The position numbers were made by a program, and so were the translations under genes. This document shows positions 1 through 53,958 of a stretch of 64,000 nt of DNA, piece after piece (the stretch's first letter is position 1; each line of letters starts with the position of its first letter). The stretch covers positions 772,023 through 836,022 of the forward strand of contig JBMORU010000001.1 in NCBI GenBank assembly GCA_049322215.1. Reading direction: 5' to 3'. The notes below the pieces were generated by a model. That model was not told where the DNA came from, did no database searches, and saw only the letters and a list, made by a program, of their open reading frames with translations. This DNA comes from Patescibacteria group bacterium (GTDB lineage: Bacteria; Patescibacteriota; WWE3; UBA101185; UBA10185).

Positions 1-42
1 TTAACCGCGAAATCTATTTTGTAAACTAGCAAAAACTCGATG

Positions 43-72: not shown

Positions 73-107
73 TTTCCCACAAATCTTATACATATAAGGA
101 GGACTAA

Positions 108-530: not shown

Positions 531-632
531 CTTCTACACGCTGTTAGTTTAAGAAACTCAACCGTCTTAAACTAGCAGCTTTTTTTTTGCAATGCTACAA
601 TTACCTCCCAAATTTTAATAAGGAGACTGCAA

Positions 633-863
633 ATGGAAACGACCAACAAAAGATACACTTTGGTGTACATACCCGTGTTTGATAGTTGGTATATAAAAGA
701 CAATAATGATGTTGATCCTTTAGCGCTGCTAACCTCTATGTGTTCGGTGACTATTTACATTCCAAATGCAAAGGGGTTTAAGTCGCCTGAGGGGGCAATT
801 AAATTTTTGCAACAAAAAGTTGATCCATATGTTGCCTTAAAGCAAAGCCGCGTTTTAGCTTAA
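633..863 (+). CDS. hypothetical small protein (76 aa)
   Basis: RBS taaggagactgcaaATG; no recognisable motif. Confidence 0.3.
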   Translation: METTNKRYTLVYIPVFDSWYIKDNNDVDPLALLTSMCSVTIYIPNAKGFKSPEGAIKFLQQKVDPYVALKQSRVLA

Positions 864-7599: not shown

Positions 7600-7956
7600 A
7601 TGGCATTTATAACAAATTGTCCCAACGGTTTGGATACTTATGTTTATTTGTATTGTTCAGAGTGTGGTTCTTGGAATCCTGTCAAAATTGGAGGTCCTGG
7701 TAAAAAACCTGTGTCCCCCTCAATGTTACTCAACGTACTCGCATTGGTTTTTGATTGTTTGATTCCATTTTCGGTACCGTCTTTATTGGCTCAGTATCTT
7801 CAAACAAGCCCAATTAGTTGGTTTAAATGTACTTGTTGTGGGCATGAGTTTTGTTATGACTCACGTGTGTATTTAGATAACCCACTAAACTACACCATTG
7901 AAGATGCTCGAAAAGCTGGTGCCGATTGTGAACGCTCCCTTACTATGTATGCGTAA
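7600..7956 (+). CDS. small Cys-rich protein, putative zinc ribbon (CSECGSW ... CTCCGHEFC)
   Basis: RBS aaaaggagctaaatATG; two Cys clusters; hairpin terminator 7945-7990. Confidence 0.4.
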   Translation: MAFITNCPNGLDTYVYLYCSECGSWNPVKIGGPGKKPVSPSMLLNVLALVFDCLIPFSVPSLLAQYLQTSPISWFKCTCCGHEFCYDSRVYLDNPLNYTIEDARKAGADCERSLTMYA

Positions 7957-34345: not shown

Positions 34346-35395
34346 ATGCGCAAAAGAAAAAAACTAATTATAATTATAATAATTATTGTTCTCGGGGTTG
34401 GTGGGTTTTTTTATTCAAAAAGAAATTCCGGGAATGCCGTAAATGTACGTGAAGCTGAGGTTTATACCGATGAAGTAACAAAAACAGTATCTGCTAGTGG
34501 TGTTATTAAATCAATTAATCAGGCTAATTTGGCTACTATAACTCCAGGAACGTTAGAAAAATTAAATGTAAAAGAAACGGAAGAGGTAAAAAAAGGTCAA
34601 ATTTTAGGAAATGTCTCTAATTACGATTTGTATAAAGGGTCGGAAGCAAAAAAGCAGGCTCGAGATATTGCATTAATTGATAGAGATTTGTATGTAGAAA
34701 ACTACAGCACAAATTTAAGTGCTATTGGCGGTGAAGATGAGTATAACATTGGGTTGCGACGCCATAACGAGCTTGTTGCACAGGCAGAAGATGCTTACCA
34801 AGCATCTTTAGGTTCGTTGACTGATTCGTACTTAATTGCGCCTTTTGATGGAACTGTAGTAGACGTTTTAATTGATCAAGGCGAACTTGTAACAGCAGGC
34901 GCAAGTGTTTTAACTGTAGCTGATTTAAACCAAATAGTTTTTGAGGCTTCAATAGACCAAGAAGACTTTGGCTTAGTTAAACTAAATCAGGAAGTAGAAG
35001 TTCAACTTGATTCTTTCTCTAACAAAACTTTTACTGGAACTGTTTACAAGCTGCCTTTAGTTGTAGATTCTGCATCTAATGAGCTTACTGTTTTAATAAA
35101 AATCAACGATGTCTCAGATAACCCCGTTTTAATTGGCATGGAAGGCGATGCAGATATAGTTATAGAAAAAAACACCGTTGGTGGAACTGCACTTACTTTT
35201 GATGCAGTATTTGGTGAAGATAGCACACACTACGTATGGTTAAACGAAGAAGGAAAACTTGTGAAACAACCCGTAGAAATTGGACTAGAAGGTGATTTAT
35301 ATACAATTATTTTATCAGATATTGATTTTGATAAGGTTGTAGTTCCATTAGATGATGAATTTGAAGAGGGTGCTTCGGTTAAGTTAGAGGAGTAA
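34346..35395 (+). CDS. efflux/ABC periplasmic adaptor (MacA/HlyD family)
   Basis: N-terminal TM, lipoyl-hairpin motifs, first gene of the MFP-ATPase-permease operon. Confidence 0.6.
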   Translation: MRKRKKLIIIIIIIVLGVGGFFYSKRNSGNAVNVREAEVYTDEVTKTVSASGVIKSINQANLATITPGTLEKLNVKETEEVKKGQILGNVSNYDLYKGSEAKKQARDIALIDRDLYVENYSTNLSAIGGEDEYNIGLRRHNELVAQAEDAYQASLGSLTDSYLIAPFDGTVVDVLIDQGELVTAGASVLTVADLNQIVFEASIDQEDFGLVKLNQEVEVQLDSFSNKTFTGTVYKLPLVVDSASNELTVLIKINDVSDNPVLIGMEGDADIVIEKNTVGGTALTFDAVFGEDSTHYVWLNEEGKLVKQPVEIGLEGDLYTIILSDIDFDKVVVPLDDEFEEGASVKLEE

Positions 35396-35399
35396 CCTC

Positions 35400-36077
35400 A
35401 TGTCTTCTGAAAAAGTTTTAGTTGCAGAAAATTTAGTAAAAACATACACACTTGGCAATACCACTATAAATGCAGTAAATGATGTTTCCCTTTATATAAA
35501 CAGAGGCGAGTTTGTATCTATATTAGGGAAATCAGGGTCAGGTAAATCAACCTTAATGCATATTTTAGGTCTTTTAGATACGCCAACATCTGGAAAAATA
35601 TACTTAAACGGCAAAGACACAACAGATTTAAGCGAAAATCAACTAGCACAAATTAGAAATCAGGAAATAGGCTTTGTATTTCAGTCATTTAACTTACTAG
35701 CACGTACATCTGCTTTAGATAACGTTATTTTACCCTTAAAATATAGTAAAGTTCCAAAAAATGAATGGGAATCACGTGCTCGAGAAATGCTTGAACTCGT
35801 TCAACTTGGAGATCGCTTAAATAATAAGTCGAATGAGCTATCTGGTGGTCAGAAACAACGTGTAGCTATTGCACGTGCGTTAGTCACTAGACCTGCAGTT
35901 ATTTTTGCAGATGAGCCTACCGGAAATTTAGATTCAAAAACCGGAGACGAAATAACAGCTCTATTTAAAAACTTAAATGAACAAGGAAGAACAATAGTAC
36001 TGGTAACTCATGATGATGACCTTGCAAAAATTACTGAAAGAAAAATAGTACTTAAAGACGGCAAAGTTGTGTCATGA
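35400..36077 (+). CDS. ABC transporter ATP-binding protein (MacB/LolD-type)
   Basis: GKSGSGKSTLMHILG Walker A, LSGGQKQRVAIARAL signature, IFADEPTGNLD Walker B. Confidence 0.85.
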   Translation: MSSEKVLVAENLVKTYTLGNTTINAVNDVSLYINRGEFVSILGKSGSGKSTLMHILGLLDTPTSGKIYLNGKDTTDLSENQLAQIRNQEIGFVFQSFNLLARTSALDNVILPLKYSKVPKNEWESRAREMLELVQLGDRLNNKSNELSGGQKQRVAIARALVTRPAVIFADEPTGNLDSKTGDEITALFKNLNEQGRTIVLVTHDDDLAKITERKIVLKDGKVVS

Positions 36078-37255
36078 ACATAAACGAATTATTTCACTCA
36101 GCTATAAAATCTTTAAGCTCTAATAAAGCACGTTCTATTTTAACCATGCTTGGCGTAATAATTGGCGTGTTTTCAGTTGTTACACTTGTTTCTTTAGGAC
36201 GCGGAATTCAAAACTATATAACAGACGAATTTGATCAAATTGGAACTAATTTACTATTTATATCTCCAGGGGAATCTGACATTGGAGATGATCCCGGGAA
36301 AGCATTTACTGCAAACAAGTTAAACCAAAAGCACATAGACTTAATAAATACATATGCGCGCGAATATGTTACTGCAGTTACTCCATTTTTACTTGTTGGA
36401 GAAAATGTTTCATATAAAAACAAAACTTACGCAGGAGAACTAATTGGAATTAATGCCGATTCTTTAGATATATTCAATTACCAAATACATGACGGTAGAA
36501 ACTTCACTCAGTCAGAAGAGTCTTCTAAGGCTAAAGTTGCAATAATTGGGCCATTAATTATTAATGAGCTATTTGGAGCTAAACCTGCGGTAGGTGAAAG
36601 AATTAAAATGGGAGATGAATCTTATTTAGTTATAGGAACTTTTAAAGAAAAAGGGGCAAACTATGATGATCAAATTATTATTCCATATACTTCATTGTTA
36701 GAATCGTTTGATATAGAAAATTACTCAAGCATAATTGCTAAAATAAAAAACCCTGACGAAATAAATTTGGCAACAAGGCAAATTGAAATTGCATTACTTC
36801 GTGACCTAAAAGAAGATGAGTTTACAGTACTTTCACAAAAAGATTTGCTTGAATCGATTCAAGAAATATTAGGTATGCTAACTTTAGGCTTAGGGGCAAT
36901 TGCAGGAATTTCACTTATAGTTGGCGGAATAGGAATTATGAATATTATGTTGGTTTCTGTAACTGAGCGTATTCGTGAAATTGGACTACGAAAGGCTGTA
37001 GGCGCAACGTCAGGGGCAATAGGAATTCAATTTATGTTAGAAGCAGTTTTAATTAGTGTTTTTGGGGGGGCAGTTGGCCTTGGTTTGGGCTATTTAGCTA
37101 CATTGGTAGCACAACAATTTATTAGGGCTGAAATACCGCTGTCTGCAGTTTTCTTGGCTTTTGGCTTCTCATTACTTGTGGGTGTTTTATTTGGTACTTA
37201 TCCGGCTGTAAGTGCAAGTAAAAAAGATCCAATTGAGGCTTTAAGGTACGAGTAG
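36074..37255 (+). CDS. ABC transporter permease, MacB/FtsX family
   Basis: 4-nt overlap with ATPase; same architecture as 10962-12143. Confidence 0.8.
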   Translation: MNINELFHSAIKSLSSNKARSILTMLGVIIGVFSVVTLVSLGRGIQNYITDEFDQIGTNLLFISPGESDIGDDPGKAFTANKLNQKHIDLINTYAREYVTAVTPFLLVGENVSYKNKTYAGELIGINADSLDIFNYQIHDGRNFTQSEESSKAKVAIIGPLIINELFGAKPAVGERIKMGDESYLVIGTFKEKGANYDDQIIIPYTSLLESFDIENYSSIIAKIKNPDEINLATRQIEIALLRDLKEDEFTVLSQKDLLESIQEILGMLTLGLGAIAGISLIVGGIGIMNIMLVSVTERIREIGLRKAVGATSGAIGIQFMLEAVLISVFGGAVGLGLGYLATLVAQQFIRAEIPLSAVFLAFGFSLLVGVLFGTYPAVSASKKDPIEALRYE

Positions 37256-37711
37256 CTATTCTTCAGTATCTTTTTCTAAAACTACTTTAACATTTAATTC
37301 GTCTGTGCCTTCTTGTGGAATTAAGTTGAGTTGAGAAATGTTTGCTTGTTCTTTTTTATTTTCTATATAGAGTGACCAAACGTATCCTTCTGCAGGGACT
37401 TCGCCGTTTATGCTTTGAAGTTCAGTTCCATAGGTGTAGTGTGTTGTTTCAAAAGAAAAACCCTCTTCTTTATTCAAGTATTCAAACAAATCTTCAATGC
37501 TATCTTTAGTTTCTAGCCTAACTCTGTAACTTTTAACGCTTTTTCCATTATCTACTTCTAAAAATGCAACCACGGGTTTAACTTCTTCTACAAGTTCTGT
37601 TTGTTCCTCTACAACATCTATTGTTGCCCCTTGTTTTAATGCAGACGTAATAAAAAAATAGCCAAAGCTAAGTATAAGTAATGTTACTAATAATAATTTT
37701 TTGTCGCTCAT
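37256..37711 (-). CDS. secreted hypothetical protein (151 aa)
   Basis: signal anchor then acidic domain; no motif. Confidence 0.35.
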   Translation of the reverse strand: MSDKKLLLVTLLILSFGYFFITSALKQGATIDVVEEQTELVEEVKPVVAFLEVDNGKSVKSYRVRLETKDSIEDLFEYLNKEEGFSFETTHYTYGTELQSINGEVPAEGYVWSLYIENKKEQANISQLNLIPQEGTDELNVKVVLEKDTEE

Positions 37712-37760
37712 ACTAAATTAGTTTAGCACATAAGCATGTAGTATAATTACATGAAATTAT

Positions 37761-37837
37761 GCCTCCATAGCTCAGTGGATCAGAGCGCTCGGCTTCGGAC
37801 CGAGAGGACGGGGGTTCGAATCCCTCTGGGGGCTCCA
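37761..37837 (+). tRNA. tRNA-Arg (anticodon UCG)
   Basis: cloverleaf folded by hand: acceptor GCCTCCA/TGGGGGC, anticodon loop CUUCGGA, T-loop GGTTCGAATCC, encoded CCA. Confidence 0.85.
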
Positions 37838-37893
37838 GTAAAAAATAAGGGCGTTCCCAAGTAAAATTAAATACTTAAGAACACCCAGTTAGG

Positions 37894-38304
37894 TTAAGCT
37901 GGTTCAATTAAAGTAGCAAAAGGTAGTTCAATTGGTTGAGCATTTTTACCTTTTGGTATTACTGTTGCCAGTGTACCGTTTTCCCCAGATTTAACTGCAC
38001 GAATTGTTACAGTAAAGGTATTAGGTTGTAACCCTCTTCCCGGAATAAACTTTCGATACACAATTTTTACTCTTCTTCCAACCACTAAGGCTTTTTTGGC
38101 ACTTTGTGGGCAAAAAAGAATGTTTATTGCTCCACTTGTCACCTTCGCAATAAAATCACCGCACTGTTGAGGTGACCCACGAAAAAGAGGTATTTGCTTG
38201 CGATTAGTAGGGGCAAAGGAAAGTACCGTTTTTAGCTTCCACTTACCTTTGGCTGCTTCTTCTGGACTCTCACTTAATAGAATTACCTTGTGTGTAAAAC
38301 CCAT
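37894..38304 (-). CDS. hypothetical protein (136 aa)
   Basis: strong RBS aaggagacaaacaATG on the minus strand. Confidence 0.4.
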   Translation of the reverse strand: MGFTHKVILLSESPEEAAKGKWKLKTVLSFAPTNRKQIPLFRGSPQQCGDFIAKVTSGAINILFCPQSAKKALVVGRRVKIVYRKFIPGRGLQPNTFTVTIRAVKSGENGTLATVIPKGKNAQPIELPFATLIEPA

Positions 38305-38395
38305 TGTTTGTCTCCTTACTTCAATGTTTTTGGATCGTAATTATACCTATAGTGTTGGTAAAAATAAAGTAACCAAAAGTGTTACACTATTAAGT

Positions 38396-38785
38396 ATGGA
38401 AATGAGTGAACTAGTAAGTAAATTAAAAAATTTTAATACAGAACGAAATTGGGATGCTGACTTGCAGCCTCAAGACGTTGCTAAATCAATAATTATAGAG
38501 GCAGCCGAACTTTTAGAGCACTTTCAGTGGACTGCAACACGAAAAGAAAGAAATCAAGTAGAAATGCTTGAAATTAATAAAACCGAAATTGGTGAAGAAA
38601 TAGCTGATGTTTTTATTTACCTTGCTCGTTTGGCGTACATTTTGAATATAAATATTGAGGAAGCTGTTTTAGATAAAATTGTTAAAAACGCAAAAAAGTA
38701 CCCTGTTGAGGTTTTTAAAAGTAACAAAACTGGGATTGCTAAAAAAATTCATGAAGAACATCGAAAAACAAGGAAGAATAAATAA
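38396..38785 (+). CDS. MazG-like nucleoside triphosphate pyrophosphohydrolase
   Basis: EAAELLEHFQW ... EIGEEIADVFIYLARLA (EExxE...D motifs of MazG/dCTPase); start moved to the ATG at 38396 to avoid overlapping the minus-strand gene. Confidence 0.6.
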   Translation: MEMSELVSKLKNFNTERNWDADLQPQDVAKSIIIEAAELLEHFQWTATRKERNQVEMLEINKTEIGEEIADVFIYLARLAYILNINIEEAVLDKIVKNAKKYPVEVFKSNKTGIAKKIHEEHRKTRKNK

Positions 38786-38825
38786 TTTTATGCTAAAATC
38801 CTTATGCCTTTAACCTTTTTTATGT

Positions 38826-38900
38826 GGGGACGTAGCTCAGTGGTAGAGCACTCGGCTCTTAACCGATTTGTCGTGGGTTCGAATCCCACCGTCCTCACCA
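38826..38900 (+). tRNA. tRNA-Lys (anticodon CUU)
   Basis: acceptor GGGGACG/CGTCCTC, anticodon loop CUCUUAA, T-loop GGTTCGAATCC, encoded CCA. Confidence 0.85.
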
Positions 38901-38996
38901 TCTAAACTTATGTTAGTCCCATAGTTTACAGCACACGAACTTAACATTATAATGCTACATACCTGAAAAACACGTTTTATATAAAAGGAGATAGTA

Positions 38997-39275
38997 ATGT
39001 TATTTCAAGTACCAAATGCTGTTGAGTTACAAGAACCGCTTAAAAAGGTTTTTCCTGTCGGTAACGGCTATCTAAGCTTAGCTTACACTTTAGGTAAGCA
39101 AGCTGGTCAAGAATTGGAACCTGAAGGAGTGCTTCGATGGCTTCTTTTAGGCATAGAGACAGAAGGCATGGGTTTTGGTTTACGATTTACTATACCCAAA
39201 ATCATAAAATATCTGATTTCCAATGAAGAGATGTACGTTGCGGTATTGACCTTATTTAACCAACAAACAAAGTAA
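38997..39275 (+). CDS. hypothetical protein (92 aa)
   Basis: RBS aaaaggagatagtaATG. Confidence 0.35.
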   Translation: MLFQVPNAVELQEPLKKVFPVGNGYLSLAYTLGKQAGQELEPEGVLRWLLLGIETEGMGFGLRFTIPKIIKYLISNEEMYVAVLTLFNQQTK

Positions 39276-39416
39276 TATTCAAAAAGCATAAAAAAAGCAC
39301 CTTAAGGTTTTTTGTGAGTCTTAAGGTGCTTAATACTACCGGCTTTACATCTTTACAAAACTATAGGTCATAGGTTATAATTTTAAAAATCCAATATCAC
39401 AAATAAGGAGTGTGAA

Positions 39417-39818
39417 ATGACCACAAAAAAAGGCCCATTTTACGATGATTATATGCTTAAAGCTGCACACGAATCGGCAACCGGCAATAACTCGTTTTTC
39501 GGCATGCTAGGTAGTATCGGTTTTGCCGGAATGCTTATTGTTTCAGTGCGCAGTATTGGTAGCGAATTGGAAGACATGCTCCCGCACCCAGATAGCATTT
39601 CTGCAGCACAGCTTGTAGACTACTTGCTATTTGAGGGGTTGGAAAATGGCTTTGGGAACGAGCGCTTTGCTGCCTGGTTAGCACATTCAAAGGAGTGTGA
39701 AGCCTGCGAAGTAATGCGCAAAGCTTACGAACGGCATGTTCCAAAACATTATCGCCCCAGCCCGTACATGAATTTCATGGACGCAGTGGACGATATTCGA
39801 GATTACCTCGACGAATAG
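39417..39818 (+). CDS. small HxxxCxxC (ZAS/zf-HC2-like) protein, paralog A of a 7-member family
   Basis: LVDYLLFEGLENG...WLAHSKECEAC; RBS aaataaggag; hairpin terminator 39825-39872. Confidence 0.5.
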   Translation: MTTKKGPFYDDYMLKAAHESATGNNSFFGMLGSIGFAGMLIVSVRSIGSELEDMLPHPDSISAAQLVDYLLFEGLENGFGNERFAAWLAHSKECEACEVMRKAYERHVPKHYRPSPYMNFMDAVDDIRDYLDE

Positions 39819-39824
39819 CACTTA

Positions 39825-39872
39825 GGGTATTTACTGTAGATCAAAAAATCCGCAGTAAATACCCCTTTTTTT
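39825..39872 (+). terminator. intrinsic terminator after paralog A (GGGTATTTACTG ... CAGTAAATACCC + T7); stem begins with the same GGTATTT as the repeat terminators
   Basis: 12-bp perfect stem + T-run. Confidence 0.65.
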
Positions 39873-40197
39873 ATTTTGCTATCATTAGCGAAACATCTTT
39901 CATTCTTTCAAGAAGTATCACTTCAAGTTTAAAGTCATTTGGTTGCTGGTGATTAGGGTAAACTCGTAGAAAAATTATCTGATATGTTCCAAGATCCAGT
40001 TGCTCAAGTCTTTCAATTTCTTGCTGTAATATTGCTGAAACCACAGGAAGCATTTCAATACCTGATTTTTTACCGCAAGTATGTATTGAAAGCCAATCGG
40101 CTAAACGCGCCTGCATTTTAAGCTTTTTTCTTTTTAAATCTCCAATACCAAATGCCATATACCATGTGACATTATTTTTTAGTATGTCTTCTCTCAT
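39871..40197 (-). CDS. hypothetical protein (108 aa)
   Basis: minus-strand RBS aaggagaaacaaATG. Confidence 0.4.
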   Translation of the reverse strand: MREDILKNNVTWYMAFGIGDLKRKKLKMQARLADWLSIHTCGKKSGIEMLPVVSAILQQEIERLEQLDLGTYQIIFLRVYPNHQQPNDFKLEVILLERMKDVSLMIAK

Positions 40198-40291
40198 GTT
40201 GTTTCTCCTTATTTTATTTGAATTGGGACACCATTTTAATACAAAAATGCTTTTTTTTCTTTCCTAAACCTAATAAATTTGAAATAATAAA

Positions 40292-41947
40292 TTGGTGATG
40301 GATAAGTGCCCAAACACAAAATATGTTTTTGTTACCGGAGGAGTAATTTCTGGTTTAGGAAAAGGTACTGCAACTTCCTCCATAGCACTTCTTTTAAAGT
40401 CCGCAGGATATAACGTTTCAGCCCTAAAAGCTGATATGTATTTAAATATTGATGCAGGAACAATGAACCCGGTAGAACACGGAGAAGTTTTTGTAACTGA
40501 TGATGGAATGGAAACCGACCAAGACATAGGTAACTACGAAAGATTTTTAAATAGAGATTTGTCTAAACATAACTACATGACCATGGGACAAATTTACTAC
40601 GATTTAATTACTCGAGAGCGTGCTTTTGAATTTGAAGGAAAAACAGTACAAGGTCATGTGCACGTTCCTGAAGAAATTATAAATAGATTAGAGTTGGCAG
40701 CCAACAAAGATAGGGCAGATATTATGATGGTAGAAGTTGGAGGCACTGTAGGAGAATATCAGAATATTTTATTTTTTGAAGCTGTAAGGCGTTTAAAGCA
40801 AAAGTGTCCAAACAATGTTTACATAATACATTTAGTTTACTTATTAACTCCAAATCATATAGGTGAAATGAAAAGTAAGCCAGCACAAGCTTCAATTTAT
40901 GATTTATACAAGTTGGGCTTAAGCCCGGATATTGTTTTATGCCGAAGTGGTGAATCTATAGATGAAAAAAGAAAAAATACCCTTTCATTTAATACCGGGG
41001 TTCCCCAACATCATATATTTGCGGCTCCAAACATTTCTAGCATATACAAAATACCACAAGTTTATGCTGCACAAGGGCTAGATGACACTTTACTAGACAT
41101 AATGAAACTTGAAAGAAAATCAAATGATTTAATAAAATGGGATGCACAAGTAAAAAAAATGGAAGAGTCTACGAAAAAAGTAAAAATAGGAATTTTGGGT
41201 AAATATTTTGCATCTGGCAGTTTTTCATTAGCGGATGCCTATTTATGCGTTATCGAGGCTTTAAAACATGCGGGGGCTGAGTTGGGGGTAATACCGGAAA
41301 TAGAAGCAATTAATGTAGAAGAATATACAGACGAAGAATTGTCACAACTCGATGGAGTAATAGTTCCTCAAGGGTGGGGAAGCAGAGGCGTAGAAGACAA
41401 AGTTAGGGCAATTAAATATGTTAGAGAAAACAAAGTTCCATTTTTAGGTTTATGCTTTGGCATGCAAATGGCAGTAATTGAATACGCACGTGATATTTTA
41501 GGTTTATCAGAAGCAAACACCCTAGAGGCTAATCCAGATACTCCTGACCCAGTTATTTATATAATGCCCGACCAAGAAAAATACTTAAAAGAAAAAAATT
41601 ATGGCGGAACTATAAGACTAGGTGCCTGGCCATGTAAATTAAGTGAAAATTCTACAATATTAGAGTCTTACAAAAAATATGCCCCAAATATGTTAGAAGA
41701 AAATATAGTTAACGAAAGACACCGCCATAGATACGAAGTTAACAATGATTACAAAGAGAAACTACAAGCAGCCGGGCTGATTATTAGTGGAACTTCTCCC
41801 GATGATAAGCTAGCAGAAGCTATTGAATTGCCAAAAGATAAGCACCCATTTTTTGTAGCTACTCAATTTCACCCTGAGTATAAATCAAGACCCTTGCGTC
41901 CACATCCTTTGTTTTGCTCATTTTTAGAAGCCTGTACAAGTAAATAA
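40292..41947 (+). CDS. pyrG: CTP synthase
   Basis: KYVFVTGGVISGLGKG N-terminus, glutamine amidotransferase GLCFGMQ (catalytic Cys) and HPEY...R C-terminal motifs. Confidence 0.9.
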   Translation: MVMDKCPNTKYVFVTGGVISGLGKGTATSSIALLLKSAGYNVSALKADMYLNIDAGTMNPVEHGEVFVTDDGMETDQDIGNYERFLNRDLSKHNYMTMGQIYYDLITRERAFEFEGKTVQGHVHVPEEIINRLELAANKDRADIMMVEVGGTVGEYQNILFFEAVRRLKQKCPNNVYIIHLVYLLTPNHIGEMKSKPAQASIYDLYKLGLSPDIVLCRSGESIDEKRKNTLSFNTGVPQHHIFAAPNISSIYKIPQVYAAQGLDDTLLDIMKLERKSNDLIKWDAQVKKMEESTKKVKIGILGKYFASGSFSLADAYLCVIEALKHAGAELGVIPEIEAINVEEYTDEELSQLDGVIVPQGWGSRGVEDKVRAIKYVRENKVPFLGLCFGMQMAVIEYARDILGLSEANTLEANPDTPDPVIYIMPDQEKYLKEKNYGGTIRLGAWPCKLSENSTILESYKKYAPNMLEENIVNERHRHRYEVNNDYKEKLQAAGLIISGTSPDDKLAEAIELPKDKHPFFVATQFHPEYKSRPLRPHPLFCSFLEACTSK

Positions 41948-42024
41948 CTACAAGTCTTCAGTTTGGCCTTTAAAAATGTTATTATTCCTTACTTAAACAA
42001 ATAACCTATAAGGAGAGAAACAAA

Positions 42025-42390
42025 ATGTCACTTACCATTAAAGTTATTGTTCCGAAGCAGTTAGTAATGTCACTGCTAGAAAGTCAGGGGCCTTTAAGCC
42101 CATTAGCTGAGTTTATTGTATTCGAGCTTTTTCCTCAGTCTGTTTTAAACGAATTTGCCGAAGGGTTTACTGGGGAAGAGCTTTTGATGTACCTTAAGCT
42201 CGATCATGATTTGGAAGGCCACCGCGATGACACTTGGGATGATTGGTTAAAACACACTGAAGATTGCAAGGTGTGTAAAGCAGTACTGCATGCAATTGAA
42301 GTTAAAGTTGCAGCAAAAAACATGCCTAAAAAGACCATGACTATTGATGAGGCAATTGCTAGATTACGCCCTTTTTTGGAAAATAATTAG
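42025..42390 (+). CDS. small HxxxCxxC protein, paralog B
   Basis: LLMYLKLDHDLEG...WLKHTEDCKVC. Confidence 0.5.
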   Translation: MSLTIKVIVPKQLVMSLLESQGPLSPLAEFIVFELFPQSVLNEFAEGFTGEELLMYLKLDHDLEGHRDDTWDDWLKHTEDCKVCKAVLHAIEVKVAAKNMPKKTMTIDEAIARLRPFLENN

Positions 42391-42415
42391 CAGAAATTTA
42401 GGCGAAGTTATTTTA

Positions 42416-42444
42416 TTGACACACTATAGGGTATGTTATATAAT
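42416..42444 (+). promoter_or_regulatory. consensus sigma70 promoter TTGACA-17-TATAAT for paralog C; spacer contains CACTATAGGGTATG box
   Basis: exact hexamers with 17-nt spacer read directly from sequence. Confidence 0.6.
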
Positions 42445-42495
42445 TCTCGCACCTAAATTGGTAAATCAAATAAACACACAAATAAGGAGATAACC

Positions 42496-42834
42496 ATGTT
42501 TATGCAACTTGGTGGAAACGACGATGAAGGTGGTTTTTTTGAAGAGCTTATGAGAATGGTTACTTTGCGGCGTTTGATGTCCCTGGTATCCCAGACTGAT
42601 CCCAGTTCGATTGAACCAGAAAGAATCGCCCGGCATCTTGCTGTCGAGAAAGAGCTGTTTGGTGATGAAACTTTTGGTGACTGGGTTGCTCACGCAACGG
42701 TCAGAGGCTGCCCCGGCTGTGCTCCCATGTACAAAGCACTGTTGTTGCACATCCCTGCTGAAAAGTTGCCCAAAAATAATATGCCGTACAGCCAGGCTGC
42801 CGACCAGCTCATTGCTCAGTTGAATAAGCTGTAA
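42496..42834 (+). CDS. small H-x5-C-x2-C protein, paralog C
   Basis: WVAHATVRGCPGC; perfect TTGACA-17-TATAAT promoter upstream; repeat terminator downstream. Confidence 0.5.
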   Translation: MFMQLGGNDDEGGFFEELMRMVTLRRLMSLVSQTDPSSIEPERIARHLAVEKELFGDETFGDWVAHATVRGCPGCAPMYKALLLHIPAEKLPKNNMPYSQAADQLIAQLNKL

Positions 42835-42845
42835 TTTCGGACCCA

Positions 42846-42896
42846 GGTATTTGTTATTAGTCACTAAACTATACTAATAGCAAATACCTTTTTTTT
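42846..42896 (+). terminator. intrinsic terminator, repeat copy 1: GGTATTTGTTATTAGT-loop-ACTAATAGCAAATACC + T8
   Basis: 16-bp stem (one G.U) then T-run; 41/43 identical to copy 2. Confidence 0.7.
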
Positions 42897-42986
42897 GTTT
42901 TAAAAGCTTTACTTACCGCTATAGGGCATGGTATTATCCAACAACAAATTCCGCTTTTCAAATAAAAAAATAAGGAGTAGACACAA

Positions 42987-43370
42987 ATGTCAATTTTTAA
43001 ATCACTTCTTGGTGATGATGACGACGAAGAAATTGGTGGTATGACCGTGCATATTATTGGTTTTGGTGAGTCAGATGATGACGCTCCAGGCGGGTTGTTT
43101 GGGCTACTATCGCTGTTAGCCGGAGCCATTGGCCCAAATCCAGAAAACCTTCCAAATCAAAAAATCATTGACCACCTCAATGGCAAGCGCGAAGACTTTG
43201 CTGATAAAAAGGTTGGACATTGGTATTCTCATGCGCTACTTTGCCCCATGTGTCACAGCATGATGGAAGCTTTGGTCGAGCGTCTTGATAGTGAGCAAAT
43301 GCCCGAAGGAGATGAACCTTTTGGCGTTGGTGCTGACATGATCATTAAGGCCCTTAAAGCCCTCAAGTAG
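42987..43370 (+). CDS. small HxxxCxxC protein, paralog D
   Basis: HWYSHALLCPMC; own promoter/RBS; repeat terminator downstream. Confidence 0.5.
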   Translation: MSIFKSLLGDDDDEEIGGMTVHIIGFGESDDDAPGGLFGLLSLLAGAIGPNPENLPNQKIIDHLNGKREDFADKKVGHWYSHALLCPMCHSMMEALVERLDSEQMPEGDEPFGVGADMIIKALKALK

Positions 43371-43384
43371 CTTTCGCCCATAAA

Positions 43385-43434
43385 GGTATTTGTTATTAGT
43401 CACTAAACTATACTAATAGCAAGTACCTTTTTTT
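43385..43434 (+). terminator. intrinsic terminator, repeat copy 2 (GGTATTTGTTATTAGTCACTAAACTATACTAATAGCAAGTACC + T7)
   Basis: near-identical to 42846-42888. Confidence 0.65.
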
Positions 43435-43509
43435 ATCTCAATTTACAGAATGCTATGGGGCATGTTAAAATGTTGAAACAAATACAGATCTAAAAAGGAG
43501 TAGTAAATT

Positions 43510-43911
43510 ATGTGGCGGAAAATTTTGAAGCTACTGAAGATAGAAGCAATACTAGAGCGAAATAATGCAAAAAAAGCAACGTTTCGCGCAGAAGTTACGG
43601 TGCCCGCTAACATGAGTTCTCAGGATTTAGCCTTACTAAAATACATTATGGAAGCTTTGGCGCCAAAACCTGACGACATTACCATTGACGAAATCATTGA
43701 GCACCTTAACGATAAACGAAAATTGTTTAAAGGACAGCAAATGCGCCATTGGTATAGCCATGCAATTGCATGCCCTGTGTGCCGTGCTATGGGAGAAGCG
43801 ATGAGTCGTTTTGTACCTGAAAGCAGTAGACCTGCTGGCCGTATGACGTTTGATGCTGGGGCTGATTTGCTTATTGCACAATTAGAATTGGCAAAAGCTA
43901 AAAACAGCTAA
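43510..43911 (+). CDS. small HxxxCxxC protein, paralog E
   Basis: HWYSHAIACPVC; long hairpin terminator 43920-43969. Confidence 0.5.
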   Translation: MWRKILKLLKIEAILERNNAKKATFRAEVTVPANMSSQDLALLKYIMEALAPKPDDITIDEIIEHLNDKRKLFKGQQMRHWYSHAIACPVCRAMGEAMSRFVPESSRPAGRMTFDAGADLLIAQLELAKAKNS

Positions 43912-43919
43912 TTTAGTAA

Positions 43920-43969
43920 TAAGCATTTACTGTTAATTTCTTAGGCAATTAATAGTAGATGCTTTTTTT
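43920..43969 (+). terminator. intrinsic terminator after paralog E (19-bp imperfect stem + T7)
   Basis: TAAGCATTTACTGTTAATT / AATTAATAGTAGATGCTT then TTTTTTT. Confidence 0.6.
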
Positions 43970-44034
43970 ATATTTGCGTTACTCAGTACCCTATAGTATA
44001 ATAAGCGTAATTTACAACTAAATAAGGAGTTGGT

Positions 44035-44343
44035 ATGAGAGAGTTAATAGACAAACTTGACTCCCCGGTGGTAAGAATAATAACAACATTAAGGACAGAG
44101 CTGTTTGGTTCCCCATCACTTGAAAAAATTATAGCTAACATGGAACCAAACGAAGAGCACTATGGCTCTATGCCTTTATTGTTTTGGCTTATTCACTCCT
44201 TGGGGTGTGTAAACTGCAACTATTACGCAAATTTTGTTTTAAGTCATTTCGAAAAAACCAGTCACAAAGAAATCATGTCAACTAACTTTAGTGTGGTTTT
44301 AGAAATGCTAAGACAAAAAGCTAAAAAAACAAAGGTGAGGTAA
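44035..44343 (+). CDS. small HxxxCxxC protein, paralog F
   Basis: FWLIHSLGCVNC. Confidence 0.45.
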   Translation: MRELIDKLDSPVVRIITTLRTELFGSPSLEKIIANMEPNEEHYGSMPLLFWLIHSLGCVNCNYYANFVLSHFEKTSHKEIMSTNFSVVLEMLRQKAKKTKVR

Positions 44344-44345
44344 AA

Positions 44346-44639
44346 ATGGACGAATCCCGGTTAGAAGCAGTTAAGTTTCGAGTAGCAAATTTTGCTATCG
44401 AAACATTGGCAAAATTGTTTCCCCCAACGTTAGAACGAATTATTAAGCACATGGAAACGTTGCGTGAAAAATACAACGACCGCTTTGTGTTACTTTGGGA
44501 AACAGAAGCCCGAGGCCTTAGTATGTTTTATGCCCGCGCCTTAGAAAACTACCTTGATGCTCATGGGCTCGTAGAACTAGAGGTTGAAGACTTCAACGTA
44601 GCAATAGCCCAGTTAAAAAAGCGAAACAAAACCAGCTAA
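44346..44639 (+). CDS. divergent family member G (motif Cys/His lost), translationally coupled to F
   Basis: similar length and helix pattern, retains the W but lacks the H/C; RBS ggtgaggtaaaaATG; hairpin terminator about 44650-44700. Confidence 0.35.
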   Translation: MDESRLEAVKFRVANFAIETLAKLFPPTLERIIKHMETLREKYNDRFVLLWETEARGLSMFYARALENYLDAHGLVELEVEDFNVAIAQLKKRNKTS

Positions 44640-44726
44640 GTGCCAAGGACACCTGTAATTTGATTTAAACCAAATTGCATGTGTCCTTTTTTTTTGCACT
44701 TATTTGTTATAATCAAACAGTTATTT

Positions 44727-48273: not shown

Positions 48274-49041
48274 ATGTACAGCTTTAATTCTTTGCAAGTA
48301 GATTTAAAAAATGAAGTAAGTAAAATTAATGGTCAGGTAGCATTAAAGGTTAAATTTCTCAATAGTGATGAAACGTTTGAATATAATGCATACGCGCAAG
48401 TTTGGGCGGCAAGTGTTATTAAAATTCCTTTGGTTTGCACAGTTTACAAACAAATAAACGAAAAGCAAATATATGACCAAGAACGCCATATTATAAAGCA
48501 AGAAAACAGAGTAGATGGGTCAGGAATTGCAAAATTGTTTTCTACAAGTACCGAATTTACTATACATGACTTAATTGTGATGACACTAACCATATCTGAT
48601 AATTCTGCTACCAACGAATTAATAGATATAGTAGGGGTTGGCGCGACAGAAACTTACATGCATAAGTTAGGTCTAGTTAATACAACTTTAAGACATAAAA
48701 TGATGGTTAAGGCAGGAAAAGGTCCAAACTTAACAACTGCAACAGACATTACGACATTGCTTGAGAAGCTTTATAAAAAAGTAATTCCAGGTAAAGATGA
48801 AGTATTAAATTTTATGAAACATACCCGTTTACGAGACAGATTGCCAAGAAAAATTCCTAACACGGTTGAAGTTGCAAATAAGCCAGGATCTTTACCTGAA
48901 GCAATGCATGATGTAGGCGTAGTTTTTTCAGCAAATCCTTTTATATTTTCATTTTTATCGGATGATCAAAAAGACAAAGAAATTACAAGAGAAGTTATTT
49001 CTAACTGTGCGAAAAGTTGTTTTGATTACTCAAACCAATAA
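48274..49041 (+). CDS. class-A beta-lactamase-like serine hydrolase
   Basis: SVIK (SxxK), ISDNSATN (SDN), NKPGS (KxG) in the canonical order. Confidence 0.6.
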   Translation: MYSFNSLQVDLKNEVSKINGQVALKVKFLNSDETFEYNAYAQVWAASVIKIPLVCTVYKQINEKQIYDQERHIIKQENRVDGSGIAKLFSTSTEFTIHDLIVMTLTISDNSATNELIDIVGVGATETYMHKLGLVNTTLRHKMMVKAGKGPNLTTATDITTLLEKLYKKVIPGKDEVLNFMKHTRLRDRLPRKIPNTVEVANKPGSLPEAMHDVGVVFSANPFIFSFLSDDQKDKEITREVISNCAKSCFDYSNQ

Positions 49042-49627: not shown

Positions 49628-50776
49628 ATGAAAAAAAATAAAACATCAAAGCTATTCACGCTAGGTCTACTTCTACTGTTAGCAACTTTAATTGCAGCAT
49701 GCAGGCCCTACCCGGTAAAACAAATTATTGAAATCGAGCCGCATCAAACTGCGTTTGTGGTTCCGTTGGAAGGAGATTCAACCGAGCAAGCTCAGTTTCA
49801 AAGCGTTGCGTTTTTAAAGGAATCTCAGGTAGCCACCAAGCGCATTGTTGTTGACGTTGTAGAGCATAAAATTGGGCGCGGTTGGTGGAATATTGAGTGG
49901 ATTCCTGTTGCCCGGGTTATTGTTGTTGACCGAACTCCTGTTACCCGACAATGGACAGAAGAAGAAGGAACCGGTACGTCAAATTCTAATGAAGCATTTC
50001 AGGTAGAAACAGTAGAAACCATTGGGTTTGCTATTGGTGGTGTTGTATCGGCACTTGTAACAGAAGAAAATGCAGCTAACTTTTTGTACTACTACCACGG
50101 AAAGCCACTCTCTGAGGTGATGGACACTGTTATTCGCGGGTACCTTCAGGCAAATCTGTTTAGTAGGTTTGGTACACTAACTCTTGAAGAGGCTCGTAAT
50201 CAAAAGGCTGAAATATTTACAGCAGTTTGTGACGCGGCGGTGACCGAATTTAAAACGCAGGGAATTACCATTCAAGCCTGTGGTGGTAGTGACGGTATGA
50301 TTTACGAAGACCGTGAGGTGCAAATTGTTGTAAACCAAGCGATTGAAGCCCAACAACAAAGGATTATTGCAGAAGCAGAGGCTACCTCGCAGGCAATTGT
50401 CAACAATACCGACATTGGCATTGCAAACGCGCAAGCTACTGTTGAAGTTATTCAGGCAGAAGCTGAGGCTGACGCATTGCGCGTAGTTGGTGAAGTGTTG
50501 GAACAAAACCCCGAAATTATTGGGTATACCTATGCCGAAGCATACAATGGTACAGTACCAAACACTTTGGTAGTGACTACGTCAACCAATGGATCTAACT
50601 CGCCGTTTATGTTTTTAATTGACGGTGTAGCAGTAACTCCAGCACCATATGCAGCCGGAGGTACCATGGCAACAGCAACCCCAAATGCGCCGGCAACTGA
50701 AACGCCACAGCCCACACAAACACCAACGCCAATGACCATTCCTACGGTAACGGCAACCGCTGAATCAGGTGGGTAA
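49628..50776 (+). CDS. lipoprotein with SPFH/band-7-like domain and Thr/Pro-rich C-terminal tail
   Basis: lipobox LIAAC; middle region resembles the SPFH core and AEAEA coiled-coil. Confidence 0.45.
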   Translation: MKKNKTSKLFTLGLLLLLATLIAACRPYPVKQIIEIEPHQTAFVVPLEGDSTEQAQFQSVAFLKESQVATKRIVVDVVEHKIGRGWWNIEWIPVARVIVVDRTPVTRQWTEEEGTGTSNSNEAFQVETVETIGFAIGGVVSALVTEENAANFLYYYHGKPLSEVMDTVIRGYLQANLFSRFGTLTLEEARNQKAEIFTAVCDAAVTEFKTQGITIQACGGSDGMIYEDREVQIVVNQAIEAQQQRIIAEAEATSQAIVNNTDIGIANAQATVEVIQAEAEADALRVVGEVLEQNPEIIGYTYAEAYNGTVPNTLVVTTSTNGSNSPFMFLIDGVAVTPAPYAAGGTMATATPNAPATETPQPTQTPTPMTIPTVTATAESGG

Positions 50777-53031: not shown

Positions 53032-53958
53032 CTAAAGCATAAATGCTTTAATAAATTTACCGGTTTCTTCAGAAACTTCTACAAAATCTTCGTAAGTAGT
53101 GCCACTAGACATTACGCATACTAATACAATTTTTTCGTTTAAAACTATTCCACAGTCGTGCCAACTGCCTTCATTACCCCAGTTGCCTATTTTGTGACTA
53201 AAAGTAACGTCTTCACCTAAACCTACATTTATTCTGTCGTCAAACGAGGTTTGAGAAAGCATATTTATAATTAAGTTAGAATTTTCAGCAGCCAAATATG
53301 AATAAGTGGCTAACTTTTCTAAAAGTTCTATCATTTCACTGGGTGTTATATTAAGCGTGTTAGGAAAACGTGTTACAGAAGCATATGGAAAGTAATTGCC
53401 CACAGGCATTGATATTGAACGAGTAAGCATGTTTTGCGCGGTATTATCAGATTCTTTTAGTAATTTTTCTAAGGTTTGCTTAACAGTTAGCTTTGACCCT
53501 GTTTTGTAACCCTGCAAAGACCCAGAACCCGACTCTTTGTCAAATAGTGTTAGTGTAAGCTCATTTTCTAAAGATATTTTGTTTGCCTCTACATCACGCA
53601 GTACTGCAATTGCAACCGGTACCTTATACAATGAGGCGCTGTAATAGTTTGTATCTTTGTTTAAAGTTTTTTCTACCCCTGTTTTTAGATCTTTAATATA
53701 TATTGAGTAAGTACCAGGTTTTGAATTAGCAAAGTCTTGCAAAATACTAAATTGGTAATCAACTTGAGAGTTAAATTTATAATCTAGGCCAAGTTGTATG
53801 TTTAAAGGCAAATCAATAGATGAAGATGCAAGAGACGTTGTAGCTTTTGCGATATTTGTAGATTTAGAATCAAGATCGGCAAGCACAAAAGTGCCAATAA
53901 TTAACATGCCTAGTAGTATTCCCGCCAATGTTGGATATGCTTTTTCCTTCATAAACAT
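53032..53958 (-). CDS. secreted class-A beta-lactamase-like serine hydrolase (paralog of 48274-49041)
   Basis: signal peptide, SLYK (SxxK), ESDNTAQN (SDN), HKIGNWG (KxG). Confidence 0.55.
   Translation of the reverse strand: MFMKEKAYPTLAGILLGMLIIGTFVLADLDSKSTNIAKATTSLASSSIDLPLNIQLGLDYKFNSQVDYQFSILQDFANSKPGTYSIYIKDLKTGVEKTLNKDTNYYSASLYKVPVAIAVLRDVEANKISLENELTLTLFDKESGSGSLQGYKTGSKLTVKQTLEKLLKESDNTAQNMLTRSISMPVGNYFPYASVTRFPNTLNITPSEMIELLEKLATYSYLAAENSNLIINMLSQTSFDDRINVGLGEDVTFSHKIGNWGNEGSWHDCGIVLNEKIVLVCVMSSGTTYEDFVEVSEETGKFIKAFML

Follow-up and report, generated by a model that had tools for sequence, protein, structure and literature searches.

The window, by which we mean the whole 64,000-nucleotide stretch of DNA analysed here, from an uncultured Patescibacteria bacterium, contains an array of seven small genes, A to G, all of which lie on the forward strand at the positions originally given and encode proteins of 97–133 amino acids (Table 1). 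The array is interrupted by pyrG, and its borders are formed by tRNA-Lys and tRNA-Leu. BLASTP lends statistical backing to the predicted paralogy of the seven proteins: the closest pairs are D–E (E = 6e-23), C–D (2e-14) and C–E (7e-12), A is connected to E (2e-10), C (3e-10) and B (8e-8), and the remaining pairs are F–G (3e-7), B–C (4e-7) and D–G (4e-4). The tandem paralogues share 20–38% identity, and a family HMM run against the six-frame ORFs of the window recovers exactly A–G.

Table 1. Genes, promoters and terminators of the array (positions in the window; ΔG in kcal/mol)
Feature	Position	Strand	Properties
Promoter of A	39352..39381	+	TTTACA, 18 nt, TATAAT; 11/12 hexamer matches; CTATAGG box at 39361-39367 in spacer, then -10 element
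Paralogue A	39417..39818	+	133 aa, ACOZAO_04300; core ~50-133; W87, H90, C94, C97
Terminator of A	39825..39873	+	hairpin and U-run; ΔG -21.3, z -7.2
pyrG (CTP synthase)	40292..41947	+	inside array, not a family member
Paralogue B	42025..42390	+	121 aa, ACOZAO_04315; H-x3-C-x2-C; orthologue of P0008
Promoter of C	42416..42444	+	TTGACA, 17 nt, TATAAT (12/12); box CTATAGGGTATGTTA at 42424-42438
Paralogue C	42496..42834	+	112 aa, ACOZAO_04320; H-x5-C-P-G-C; hypervariable between strains
Terminator of C	42845..42895	+	51-nt element, 98% identity with D terminator; ΔG -19.4, z -5.5
Promoter of D	42908..42937	+	TTTACT, 18 nt, TATTAT; TG extended -10; box CTATAGGGCATGGTA at 42919-42933
Paralogue D	42987..43370	+	127 aa, ACOZAO_04325; H-x3-H-x3-C-P-M-C; acidic N-terminal extension
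Terminator of D	43384..43434	+	second copy of the 51-nt element; ΔG -21.1, z -7.1
Promoter of E	43442..43471	+	TTTACA, 18 nt, TAAAAT; TG extended -10; box CTATGGGGCATGTTA at 43453-43467
Paralogue E	43510..43911	+	133 aa, ACOZAO_04330; H-x3-H-x3-C-P-V-C
Terminator of E	43921..43971	+	ΔG -20.3, z -5.8
Putative weak F–G promoter	43974..44002	+	TTGCGT, 17 nt, TATAAT; CCTATAG abuts -10; read from sequence
Paralogue F	44035..44343	+	102 aa, ACOZAO_04335; H-x3-C-x2-C; short N-terminus; basic pI
Paralogue G	44346..44639	+	97 aa, ACOZAO_04340; fold-defining Trp kept, His and both Cys lost
Terminator of F–G unit	44645..44697	+	ΔG -24.4, z -6.5

The original prediction rested on a shared His-Cys-Cys motif, and our alignment check shows that the His and Cys positions are homologous columns. 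In the alignment, A, B, D, E and F carry an invariant Trp followed by His at +3 and Cys at +9 and +12; C has a two-residue insert that yields H-x5-C-x2-C, and G lacks all three residues, just as described. G has been retained despite the loss of all ligands, and the site is therefore not essential for every member. The pattern H-x3-C-x2-C occurs in 5 of the 475 six-frame ORFs of the window, all five being family members, and none of 20,000 residue shuffles placed it in at least two paralogues; taken together, these counts indicate that the motif did not arise by chance. None of the proteins contains a cysteine besides the CxxC pair. Three ligands are conserved and the candidate fourth-ligand columns vary; five of eight members have His or Asp four residues before the motif His, and this residue, one helical turn ahead, could on sequence grounds be a candidate fourth ligand. 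The His-Cys-Cys site is probably metal- or redox-sensitive.

AlphaFold2 models the core of E (residues 42–133) with very high confidence as a five-helix domain (pLDDT 94.1, pTM 0.83), in which the His ends helix 3, one Cys lies in the linker and the other is at the N-terminus of helix 4. The model of full-length A has the same helix order; its core reaches pLDDT values of 84–98, and its first 44 residues stay below 50. Each protein consists of a variable, probably disordered N-terminal extension of 15–50 aa with the conserved domain of ~85 aa behind it. The fold of the E core has no significant structural neighbour among solved and viral structures. No signal peptides were found in the paralogues. 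The claim that the family has no TM segments needs amending for A, which alone has a hydrophobic stretch (residues 26–44, 19-residue Kyte-Doolittle mean 1.84), located in a low-confidence part of the AlphaFold model. The pI of the members spans 4.5 to 9.4, the cores of A–D being acidic; given this span, different members may act on different kinds of target.

The genes had been described as autonomous cassettes with individual promoters and terminators; this holds true for A, C, D and E but not for B, F and G. The promoters of A, C, D and E have sigma-70-type hexamers matching at 9–12 of 12 positions, and the terminators of the array are hairpins with a U-run (ΔG -19 to -24 kcal/mol, z -5.5 to -7.2). 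B starts 77 nt past pyrG, with no recognisable promoter and no terminator on either side, and is probably co-transcribed with pyrG. F and G are a bicistron: the stop codon of F ends at 44343, G begins 2 nt on at 44346, and the two have in common one terminator and one weak promoter, the putative element scoring under the threshold of our promoter scan. The AAGGAG ribosome-binding site is found upstream of A–F. The proposed conserved promoter box, CTATRGGNNATGNTA, is exact before C, D and E only, with partial versions in A and F. The same box is also present in promoters of unrelated small ORFs. The non-coding modules of the array are 80% identical overall and 98% identical over one 51-nt stretch, as compared to only 55–65% for the coding DNA.

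Our population evidence comes from two near-identical strains and concerns a divergent allele in one gene, with D and E of the second strain falling outside the comparison. The C protein and its counterpart in the second strain, C', differ at 37 of 112 residues (33%), with dS of 1.03 and dN/dS of 0.21. Between the same strains dS is ~0.12 for both pyrG and B (dN/dS of B 0.18), so that the synonymous divergence of C is in roughly ten-fold excess. At residues 14–33, 16 of 20 positions differ, whereas the motif region, gene ends, promoter hexamers and terminator are conserved; no conversion tracts from the other paralogues were detected in the comparison. The high dS, combined with conserved ends, promoter and terminator, marks C' as an ancient mosaic allele. 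In strains that are otherwise almost the same, this one copy of the array is present in two old and strongly divergent allelic forms, which is a new finding. Together with the paralogy, this divergent allele upholds the view of a genuine family that has undergone duplication and is diversifying.

Among 1.84 billion representative proteins searched, one outside relative emerged, P0008, which is 30% identical to B and is encoded directly downstream of the pyrG 3' end in another organism (L001). The family shows extreme taxonomic restriction. Both the dN/dS values of B and C and the presence of a B orthologue after pyrG elsewhere show that the family genes are real and under purifying selection. 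As predicted, a composition check found the genes to be GC-richer than the backbone, with GC3 of 0.37–0.50 against a window median of 0.25; at third codon positions the frequency of cytosine is 0.21 as compared to 0.12, and that of guanine likewise 0.21 as compared to 0.12. The C' allele and P0008 have high GC3 as well, which identifies it as an old, maintained family trait.

We read the array as a family of small cytoplasmic proteins that is restricted to one lineage and has expanded in tandem, and assign this explanation as a whole a probability of about 0.4. The invariant Trp would pack the five-helix domain, and W-x2-H-x3-C-x2-C (often C-P-x-C), with the His closing helix 3, one Cys in the linker and the other in the opening turn of helix 4, would provide a three-ligand site that may bind Zn(II) or serve as a thiol-redox switch and so hold the helix 3/helix 4 junction. 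The proteins may act as modules that bind partner proteins, sequestering or modulating them, with specificity set by the variable N-terminal segment together with the flanking surface; the neighbourhood of the array contains no evident partner gene. Diversification would proceed by duplication of cassettes, with promoter, RBS, CDS and terminator copied together, and, as a second route, through divergent alleles that either replace others by recombination or are kept over long periods. Such a protein would work like a ZAS anti-sigma factor while not demonstrably being one.

The assignment to the ZAS/zf-HC2 anti-sigma factors themselves finds no support beyond motif likeness, be it from Pfam, HMM, hhalign, ligand or sigma context. 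That the proteins are genuine, extremely diverged ZAS-type anti-sigma factors, which would bind, and on oxidation or zinc loss release, either the housekeeping sigma or one whose gene lies in another part of the 1.1-Mb genome, strikes us as quite improbable. The H-x3-C-x2-C triad does sit at a helix-end/helix-start junction and is often C-P-x-C followed by R/H, as it is in RsrA, RshA and RslA (PMC2877774); the helix order fits helices I–IV of the anti-sigma domain (ASD), hhalign places I-I-E-H-L...H-x3-C-x2-C in register with RsrA and RsiW (41 columns, P=0.005), and true ZAS proteins hardly detect one another (RsrA versus RsiW, E=0.044). However, the paralogues match neither zf-HC2 nor any other Pfam or NCBIfam entry even at E≤10. 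Against a ZAS profile derived from anti-sigma domains verified in the PDB, which recovers every solved ASD at E≤1e-13, they reach at most 4.9 bits, and the hhalign probability against ZAS is 6.8–7.1%, the alignment shrinking to 20 columns with a better profile. Furthermore, there is no structural match between the family fold and an ASD, no conserved distal fourth zinc ligand ~25 residues upstream and, as originally noted, no sigma factor gene at 27.7–62.5 kb of the window (-12/+18 kb around the array), and seven anti-sigma factors would be a large number in a genome reduced to ~1.1 Mb. Since the helices follow an order that fits an ASD, a ZAS-like, though unproven, way of working could nevertheless apply. 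A role in inter-organism conflict, with the array encoding diversified 'orphan' protectors (immunity, antitoxin-like, anti-phage or anti-defence specificity proteins) and the His-Cys-Cys site being merely structural, has a fairly low probability. In its favour, divergent tandem paralogues, an ancient allele with conserved flanks and strong individual promoters form a typical pattern, to which the small helical domains with acidic A–D cores, the atypical composition, the episymbiotic-type CPR host and an R-M/OLD defence cluster 12 kb away can be added. It is weakened by the lack of an adjacent toxin, nuclease or secretion gene and of any PADLOC, PHROG or Pfam immunity-family match, and by dN/dS below 1 throughout the strain comparison.

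The suggestion of horizontal acquisition has lost ground, and we regard it as very improbable that the array is recently acquired phage or mobile-element cargo that was inserted between tRNA genes and has no function integrated into the host. While the general G+C shift at third codon positions, the bordering tRNA genes, the adjoining small orphan ORFs and an SNP cluster next to tRNA-Lys would fit such an origin, the scanned neighbours include no integrase or transposase, no tRNA 3' end has an att-like duplicate, and searches of IMG/VR, INPHARED phages, PLSDB plasmids, PHROGs and BFVD gave no match; moreover, pyrG lies inside the array, the pyrG–B synteny is kept in a distant relative, and high GC3 is common to C' and P0008. 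The same linkage could mean that at least B assists or regulates CTP synthase, a role that the rest of the family would have by descent, in line with the promoterless B, the terminator-free pyrG–B gap and the position of P0008. We give this little credence: in the closest pyrG-bearing GTDB genomes (65% and 61% identity) pyrG is not followed by such a gene, the remaining six paralogues are transcribed independently of it, and no precedent is known.

As a lineage-restricted family of putative binding modules, the array invites comparison with three known systems. Like the ZAS factors (RsrA, RshA, RslA, ChrR, RsiW; zf-HC2, PF13490), its proteins are small and all-helical, cytoplasmic as RsrA is, with an H-x3-C-x2-C in which His ends one helix and C-x-x-C (often C-P-x-C) begins the next, and with a preceding helix, h-x-x-[HY]-L, in register with I-L-D-H-L of RsrA; by analogy, these likenesses make a Zn or thiol switch plausible. 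Unlike the ZAS factors, the family lacks detectable sequence or profile homology, an ASD structural match, the distal ligand and a nearby partner sigma gene, it comes in seven tandem copies of which one has no ligands, and its motif lies in the C-terminal half after a variable N-terminal extension, whereas the ZAS motif is N-terminal. With immunity arrays, such as those of the colicin DNases (Im2/7/8/9) and the orphan clusters of polymorphic toxin systems, it shares helical ~85-aa domains, acidic A–D cores, tandem copies with their own promoters, strong divergence among paralogues and strains, and a conserved scaffold with variable specificity segments. The immunity arrays known so far tend to combine unrelated families and to adjoin a toxin gene, and their proteins are not known to have a conserved His-Cys-Cys site; here all copies belong to one family, with no toxin or secretion gene nearby and no immunity-family match. 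Lineage-specific expanded orphan families are a general phenomenon in CPR/Patescibacteria, and ours resembles them in being small, unannotated and confined to one lineage, in a window with many other unannotated small ORFs. The array differs from them in being unusually well defined: its fold is modelled with confidence, the putative metal site is conserved, the autonomous cassettes have a promoter box in common, the GC3 shift has been sustained, and an ancient allelic dimorphism is documented.

The seven paralogous genes of the array, A to G, have the coordinates, strand and lengths originally predicted (Table) and are annotated as hypothetical proteins ACOZAO_04300-04340 on a 1,112,869-bp contig of a 'Patescibacteria group bacterium' MAG; proteins MFZ5424996-MFZ5425004 belong to this 1.11-Mb genome. 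Their paralogy is borne out both by BLASTP (D-E 6e-23, C-D 2e-14, C-E 7e-12, A-E 2e-10, A-C 3e-10, A-B 8e-8, B-C 4e-7, F-G 3e-7 and D-G 4e-4) and by a family HMM, which, run over every six-frame ORF of the window, picks these seven alone, the next match having an E-value of 0.27; the orphan ORFs 108-530 and 38997-39275, checked as extra members with the same HMM, do not belong. The sole invariant alignment column across A-G is a Trp (W), and in A, B, D, E and F it is accompanied by His at W+3 and Cys at W+9 and W+12. This H-x3-C-x2-C triad is also present in P0008, a relative of B from outside the window; C has a two-residue insert, yielding H-x5-C-x2-C, and G is devoid of all three residues. 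Each member other than G contains exactly two cysteines, the CxxC pair; G contains none. Since the motif occurs in 5 of 475 six-frame window ORFs, all five being family members, since none of 20,000 residue shuffles gave it to more than one paralogue, and since it occupies aligned columns, the His and Cys positions are homologous and not due to chance, the opposite of the outcome named in the original prediction as its refutation.

AlphaFold2, supplied with the seven-sequence core alignment, predicts the core of E with pLDDT 94.1 and pTM 0.83 as five helices (residues 2-9, 18-31, 37-46, 48-57 and 73-90), with His43 at the end of helix 3, Cys50 in the opening turn of helix 4 and Cys47 as the single linker residue between the two helices. 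The model of full-length A has the same core (pLDDT 84-98), and its N-terminal 44 residues, including a hydrophobic stretch (26-44), have pLDDT below 50.

Coordinates of the features discussed (A-G, 97-133 aa; strain 2, strain of sample ERR15087771; nt divergence relative to the window)
Feature	Position	Strand	Remark
Gene A, start	39417	+	
Gene B, start	42025	+	strain 2: 3.6% nt divergence, dS 0.11, 5 aa changes, dN/dS 0.18
Gene C, start	42496	+	C vs C': 91/339 nt, 37/112 aa differ; dS 1.03, dN 0.22, dN/dS 0.21
Gene D, start	42987	+	
Gene E, start	43510	+	
Gene F, start	44035	+	
Gene G, start	44346	+	
pyrG			strain 2: 2.8% nt divergence, dS 0.12, dN/dS 0.05
B-C spacer			strain 2: 12% nt divergence
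C terminator			strain 2: 2.5% nt divergence
Segment including A	37342-40156		strain 2: 99.3% identical; A protein identical, no SNP in gene
Segment	44119-45057		strain 2: 99.7% identical
51-nt near-identical terminator repeat	42845-42895 and 43384-43434		
Orphan ORF, 140 aa (window 1-640)	108-530	+	
Orphan ORF, 136 aa (window 37894-38350)	37894-38304	-	no Pfam match
SNP cluster	38902-38942		10 SNPs within 41 bp, just 3' of tRNA-Lys
Orphan ORF, 92 aa	38997-39275		
Small ORFs, 118, 143 and 114 aa	7600-9857		raised GC, 0.39-0.44; no Pfam match
First small ORF	7600-7956		two CxxC motifs; may be a zinc ribbon
SPFH/Band-7 gene	27701-28753		clear, E 3.6e-31
SPFH/Band-7 candidate	49628-50776		sub-threshold, E 6e-4, 20.3 bits vs cutoff 23.6; GC-rich, 0.45
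MacB-type tripartite ABC exporter operon	34346-37255		HlyD-like adaptor, ABC ATPase, MacB_PCD/FtsX permease
Beta-lactamase2-family genes	48274-49041 and 53032-53958		
Defence-type cluster	56327-62507		N6_N4_Mtase methylase; OLD-family AAA ATPase with TOPRIM; ResIII/DEAD helicase with C-terminal restriction endonuclease domain; raised GC3, 0.30-0.37

The motif had suggested membership of the zinc-binding anti-sigma (ZAS; RsrA/ChrR-type) or zf-HC2 proteins, and this assignment found no support beyond the motif: the triad, conserved in A, B, D, E, F and P0008, is the only testable ZAS hallmark that the family displays, and profile, fold, distal ligand and sigma gene all speak against it. None of the seven proteins matched zf-HC2 (PF13490) in Pfam, even at E≤10, and NCBIfam was negative as well. 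The ZAS HMM, which finds every solved anti-sigma domain (ASD) at E≤1e-13 (reference set RsrA, RsiW, DdvA, ChrR and RslA, each checked against its PDB entry), scores the paralogues at 4.9 bits or less, and the family profile yielded no match among PDB sequences. With a two-sequence template hhalign returned a probability of 7.1% (P 0.005) over 41 columns in register, with I-I-E-H-L aligned over I-L-D-H-L in addition to the triad; with a five-sequence template the probability was 6.8%, over only 20 columns around the triad. The zinc site of ZAS proteins combines the triad with a distal fourth ligand about 25 residues upstream, a Cys or His on helix I (RslA H25/H50/C54/C57; distal RsrA C11 and ChrR H6), and the ASD fold is well conserved despite poor sequence similarity (PMC2877774). 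In our family no upstream column holds His or Cys in at least 5 of the 8 members, the column 23 residues before the motif His reading Y,Y,Y,H,H,H,N,H and that 4 residues before it D,D,A,D,H,H,F,L, and the ASD fold was not found. ZAS anti-sigma factors have their cognate sigma gene, usually ECF, adjacent or co-transcribed; Pfam scans of the genes at 27.7-62.5 kb detected no sigma-70 family domain, in line with the earlier remark that no sigma factor gene is nearby. The likeness to ZAS factors is thus one of motif and helix order, and does not demonstrate membership. As true ZAS proteins barely detect one another (RsrA vs RsiW, E=0.044), a remote homology is still conceivable.

Each gene was expected to carry its own promoter and terminator, which holds for A, C, D and E but neither for B, which has none of its own, nor for F and G, which share a pair. 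The promoters of A, C, D and E are of sigma-70 type, matching at 9-12 of 12 positions (C has a perfect TTGACA-17-TATAAT), and these cassettes contain an AAGGAG ribosome-binding site and a 3' hairpin followed by a U-run (dG -19 to -24 kcal/mol, z -5.5 to -7.2). B starts 77 nt after the end of pyrG; no promoter was detected for it, a terminator was found neither between pyrG and B nor after B, and the two genes are probably co-transcribed. F and G abut, with one weak promoter and one terminator common to both. The predicted conserved box likewise stands in part: CTATRGGNNATGNTA is exact upstream of C, D and E only (3 matches vs 0.5 expected, a count reached in 0 of 100 shuffles), and partial at A and F. 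As its core, CTATAGG, also occupies the promoter position of two unrelated orphan ORFs, 108-530 and 37894-38304, and, on the foreign contig L001, comes after the family member's stop codon, it is a lineage-wide promoter element and not a family-specific one; it is possibly an operator. The ORF at 108-530, a non-member, has the same cassette style as the array genes, with a TTGATA-CTATAGGGCAT...TATAAT promoter, an AAGGAGG ribosome-binding site, a GC3 of 0.41 and an apparent downstream hairpin and T-run (read from the sequence), and in the other ORF CTATAGG abuts TATAAT directly, as in the F promoter. CTATAGG may be the hallmark of a larger group of small genes with an atypical composition.

The non-coding modules are far better conserved than the genes themselves: while coding DNA is 55-65% identical between paralogues, identity reaches 80% between the C-D and D-E intergenic regions and 98% in the 51-nt terminator that they include. 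No Rfam family matches these modules. Two independent Logan assemblies (contigs L002 and L085) break exactly at the 51-nt repeat, which leaves D and E thinly covered where short reads are assembled, and such breaks probably hide allelic diversity at both genes. We rejected an integron gene-cassette array, in which promoterless cassettes, each ending in attC, lie beside an intI integrase: the cassettes have their own promoters, their 3' hairpins with U-runs are of the intrinsic-terminator type, and no integrase domain was found among the neighbour genes scanned.

Per-gene GC and codon usage confirm that the genes are GC-richer than the backbone, with a GC3 of 0.37-0.50 as compared to a window median of 0.25. 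Third-position C and third-position G each stand at 0.21 vs 0.12 in the background, and the codons CAG, CGG, CGC and ACG are all raised. Translational selection, for which a pyrimidine-only third-position pattern is expected, was not supported as the cause: G- and C-ending codons rise together, and the window is devoid of ribosomal or EF-Tu reference genes. As the high GC3 is common to C', a divergent allele of C (0.42), and P0008 (0.41, with 0.31 GC in its non-coding DNA), it is old and maintained, not the scar of a recent transfer. If the locus is prone to recombination, GC-biased gene conversion could have produced such a shift.

Part of the locus is also represented in contigs of a second sample (Logan ERR15087771), whose identity to the window changes strongly from region to region (Table). 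They support the prediction of a diversifying family: the second-strain C (C') differs at 37 of 112 residues, with a dS of 1.03 vs 0.12 in pyrG. C and C' are identical at residues 1-13 and 101-112 and almost so in the motif region, and both retain the -35 and -10 hexamers; in the N-terminal extension (residues 14-33) 16 of 20 residues differ. C and C' are about 10 times older than the genomic background and both are under purifying selection. In the two strains compared, this is the pattern that recombinational allele replacement or a long-term balanced polymorphism leaves behind, and the dimorphism supports diversification; the sequence comparison points to the N-terminal segment as a candidate specificity determinant. 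Gene conversion from a paralogue was rejected as the source of C', no tracts common to C' and any other paralogue being found. Public data yielded only these two C alleles. Comparison of the window with contig L003 of the same sample also revealed the SNP cluster downstream of tRNA-Lys, which overlaps the promoter region of the 92-aa orphan ORF; the rest of L003 diverges by about 0.3%.

HMMER, run exhaustively against 1.84 billion representative proteins, returned the seven family proteins themselves (E 1e-19 to 1e-29) and a sole credible relative, P0008 (116 aa, E 2e-4); P0009-P0011, the three remaining matches, are spurious repeat proteins. P0008 is about 30% identical to B and is encoded on a 504-bp ENA contig that opens with 40 bases encoding a pyrG C-terminus (PIFCSFIEACLK* vs PLFCSFLEACTSK*); the pyrG-B linkage is therefore conserved in a second organism. 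The search for the family and its context in metagenomes and CPR genomes, as originally proposed, produced only this relative after pyrG. No family member lies beside pyrG in any of 80 GTDB species genomes, the closest pyrG genes being 65% and 61% identical. Four loci with pyrG relatives of 52-56% identity among the CPR matches (L006, L007, L011 and L012) are labelled Bathyarchaeia or Gammaproteobacteria, and may be mis-binned or mislabelled MAG contigs. JGI metagenomes scanned with two sub-alignments contained no member: the first returned nothing and the second only L084, a spurious match of 20 residues that lies out of frame in a high-GC gut contig. No member was found among IMG/VR viral contigs, INPHARED phages or PLSDB plasmids (the only plasmid matches were Streptomyces at E=0.9), and PHROGs, PADLOC, Pfam, NCBIfam and BFVD gave no family match. 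A word-indexed search with the seven- and eight-member alignments and C' returned only the family itself, P0008 and the C allele; it is lossy, missing C and E despite their being cluster representatives there and finding B in one search only, and negatives from it alone are not trustworthy. The family occurs in none of the libraries, and among solved and viral structures no neighbour of its fold could be detected.

The exporter operon lies 2 kb upstream of A, and no link between it and the family was established. The other genes in the Table are recorded as further features of the surroundings.

Our preferred reading, to which we assign a probability of roughly 40%, is that A-G are a lineage-restricted family of cytoplasmic protein-binding modules, probably Zn-stabilised or thiol-switchable, that diversify by cassette duplication and allele turnover. 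By analogy, the modules would act on their partners in a ZAS-like manner; their metal and partner binding, as well as the role of the N-terminus, are putative. It is doubtful that A-G are specificity proteins of the immunity or defence type whose site is merely structural: Pfam, PADLOC and PHROG gave no match, and toxin domains are absent from the scanned neighbours. Somewhat less plausible still is a wider proposal, that of an undescribed fold family of small Zn/thiol-switch proteins which in one Patescibacteria lineage would be diversified modules for recognition or neutralisation. Their deeply divergent alleles would be maintained by balancing or frequency-dependent selection, or exchanged by recombination, which would suggest a role in host-epibiont, phage or inter-strain conflict through a mechanism analogous to that of ZAS anti-sigma factors but of independent evolutionary origin. 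RiPP precursors, which combine a conserved leader with a variable core, were rejected: what is conserved here is a C-terminal domain with a confidently predicted fold, and modifying enzymes are absent from the vicinity.

The suggestion of horizontal acquisition found no backing in phage, plasmid or PHROG matches. The composition of the array might recall foreign cargo, but the high GC3 extends to C' and P0008 and neither integrase nor att site was found; we consider cargo very unlikely, and an integrative island was rejected with no integrase and no att-like tRNA duplication. That A-G are PyrG accessory proteins, B lying next to pyrG, is least credible of all.

CPR/Patescibacteria genomes are small, with a large share of genes unannotated, and orphan expanded families are common in them. 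Here seven genes in a compact locus of about 5 kb, each with signals for strong expression, are devoted to a single protein family, which is all but missing from the 1.84 billion representative proteins and has no neighbour among solved structures. If the C dimorphism reflects balancing selection, the family would mark a recognition or conflict interface in a not-yet-cultured organism. In either case A-G are a tangible and inexpensive object of study: they are small and soluble, their predicted fold is confident and the point mutants of interest are evident.

Should the His-Cys-Cys site prove to be a zinc or redox switch, the ZAS-type helix-junction site would have a second, independent use, outside sigma-factor control. 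It is unlikely that A-G are true but very diverged ZAS anti-sigma factors: most of them share with these the triad, and the helix order is compatible, but they differ in having no conserved distal ligand, no ASD profile match and no sigma gene at 27.7-62.5 kb.
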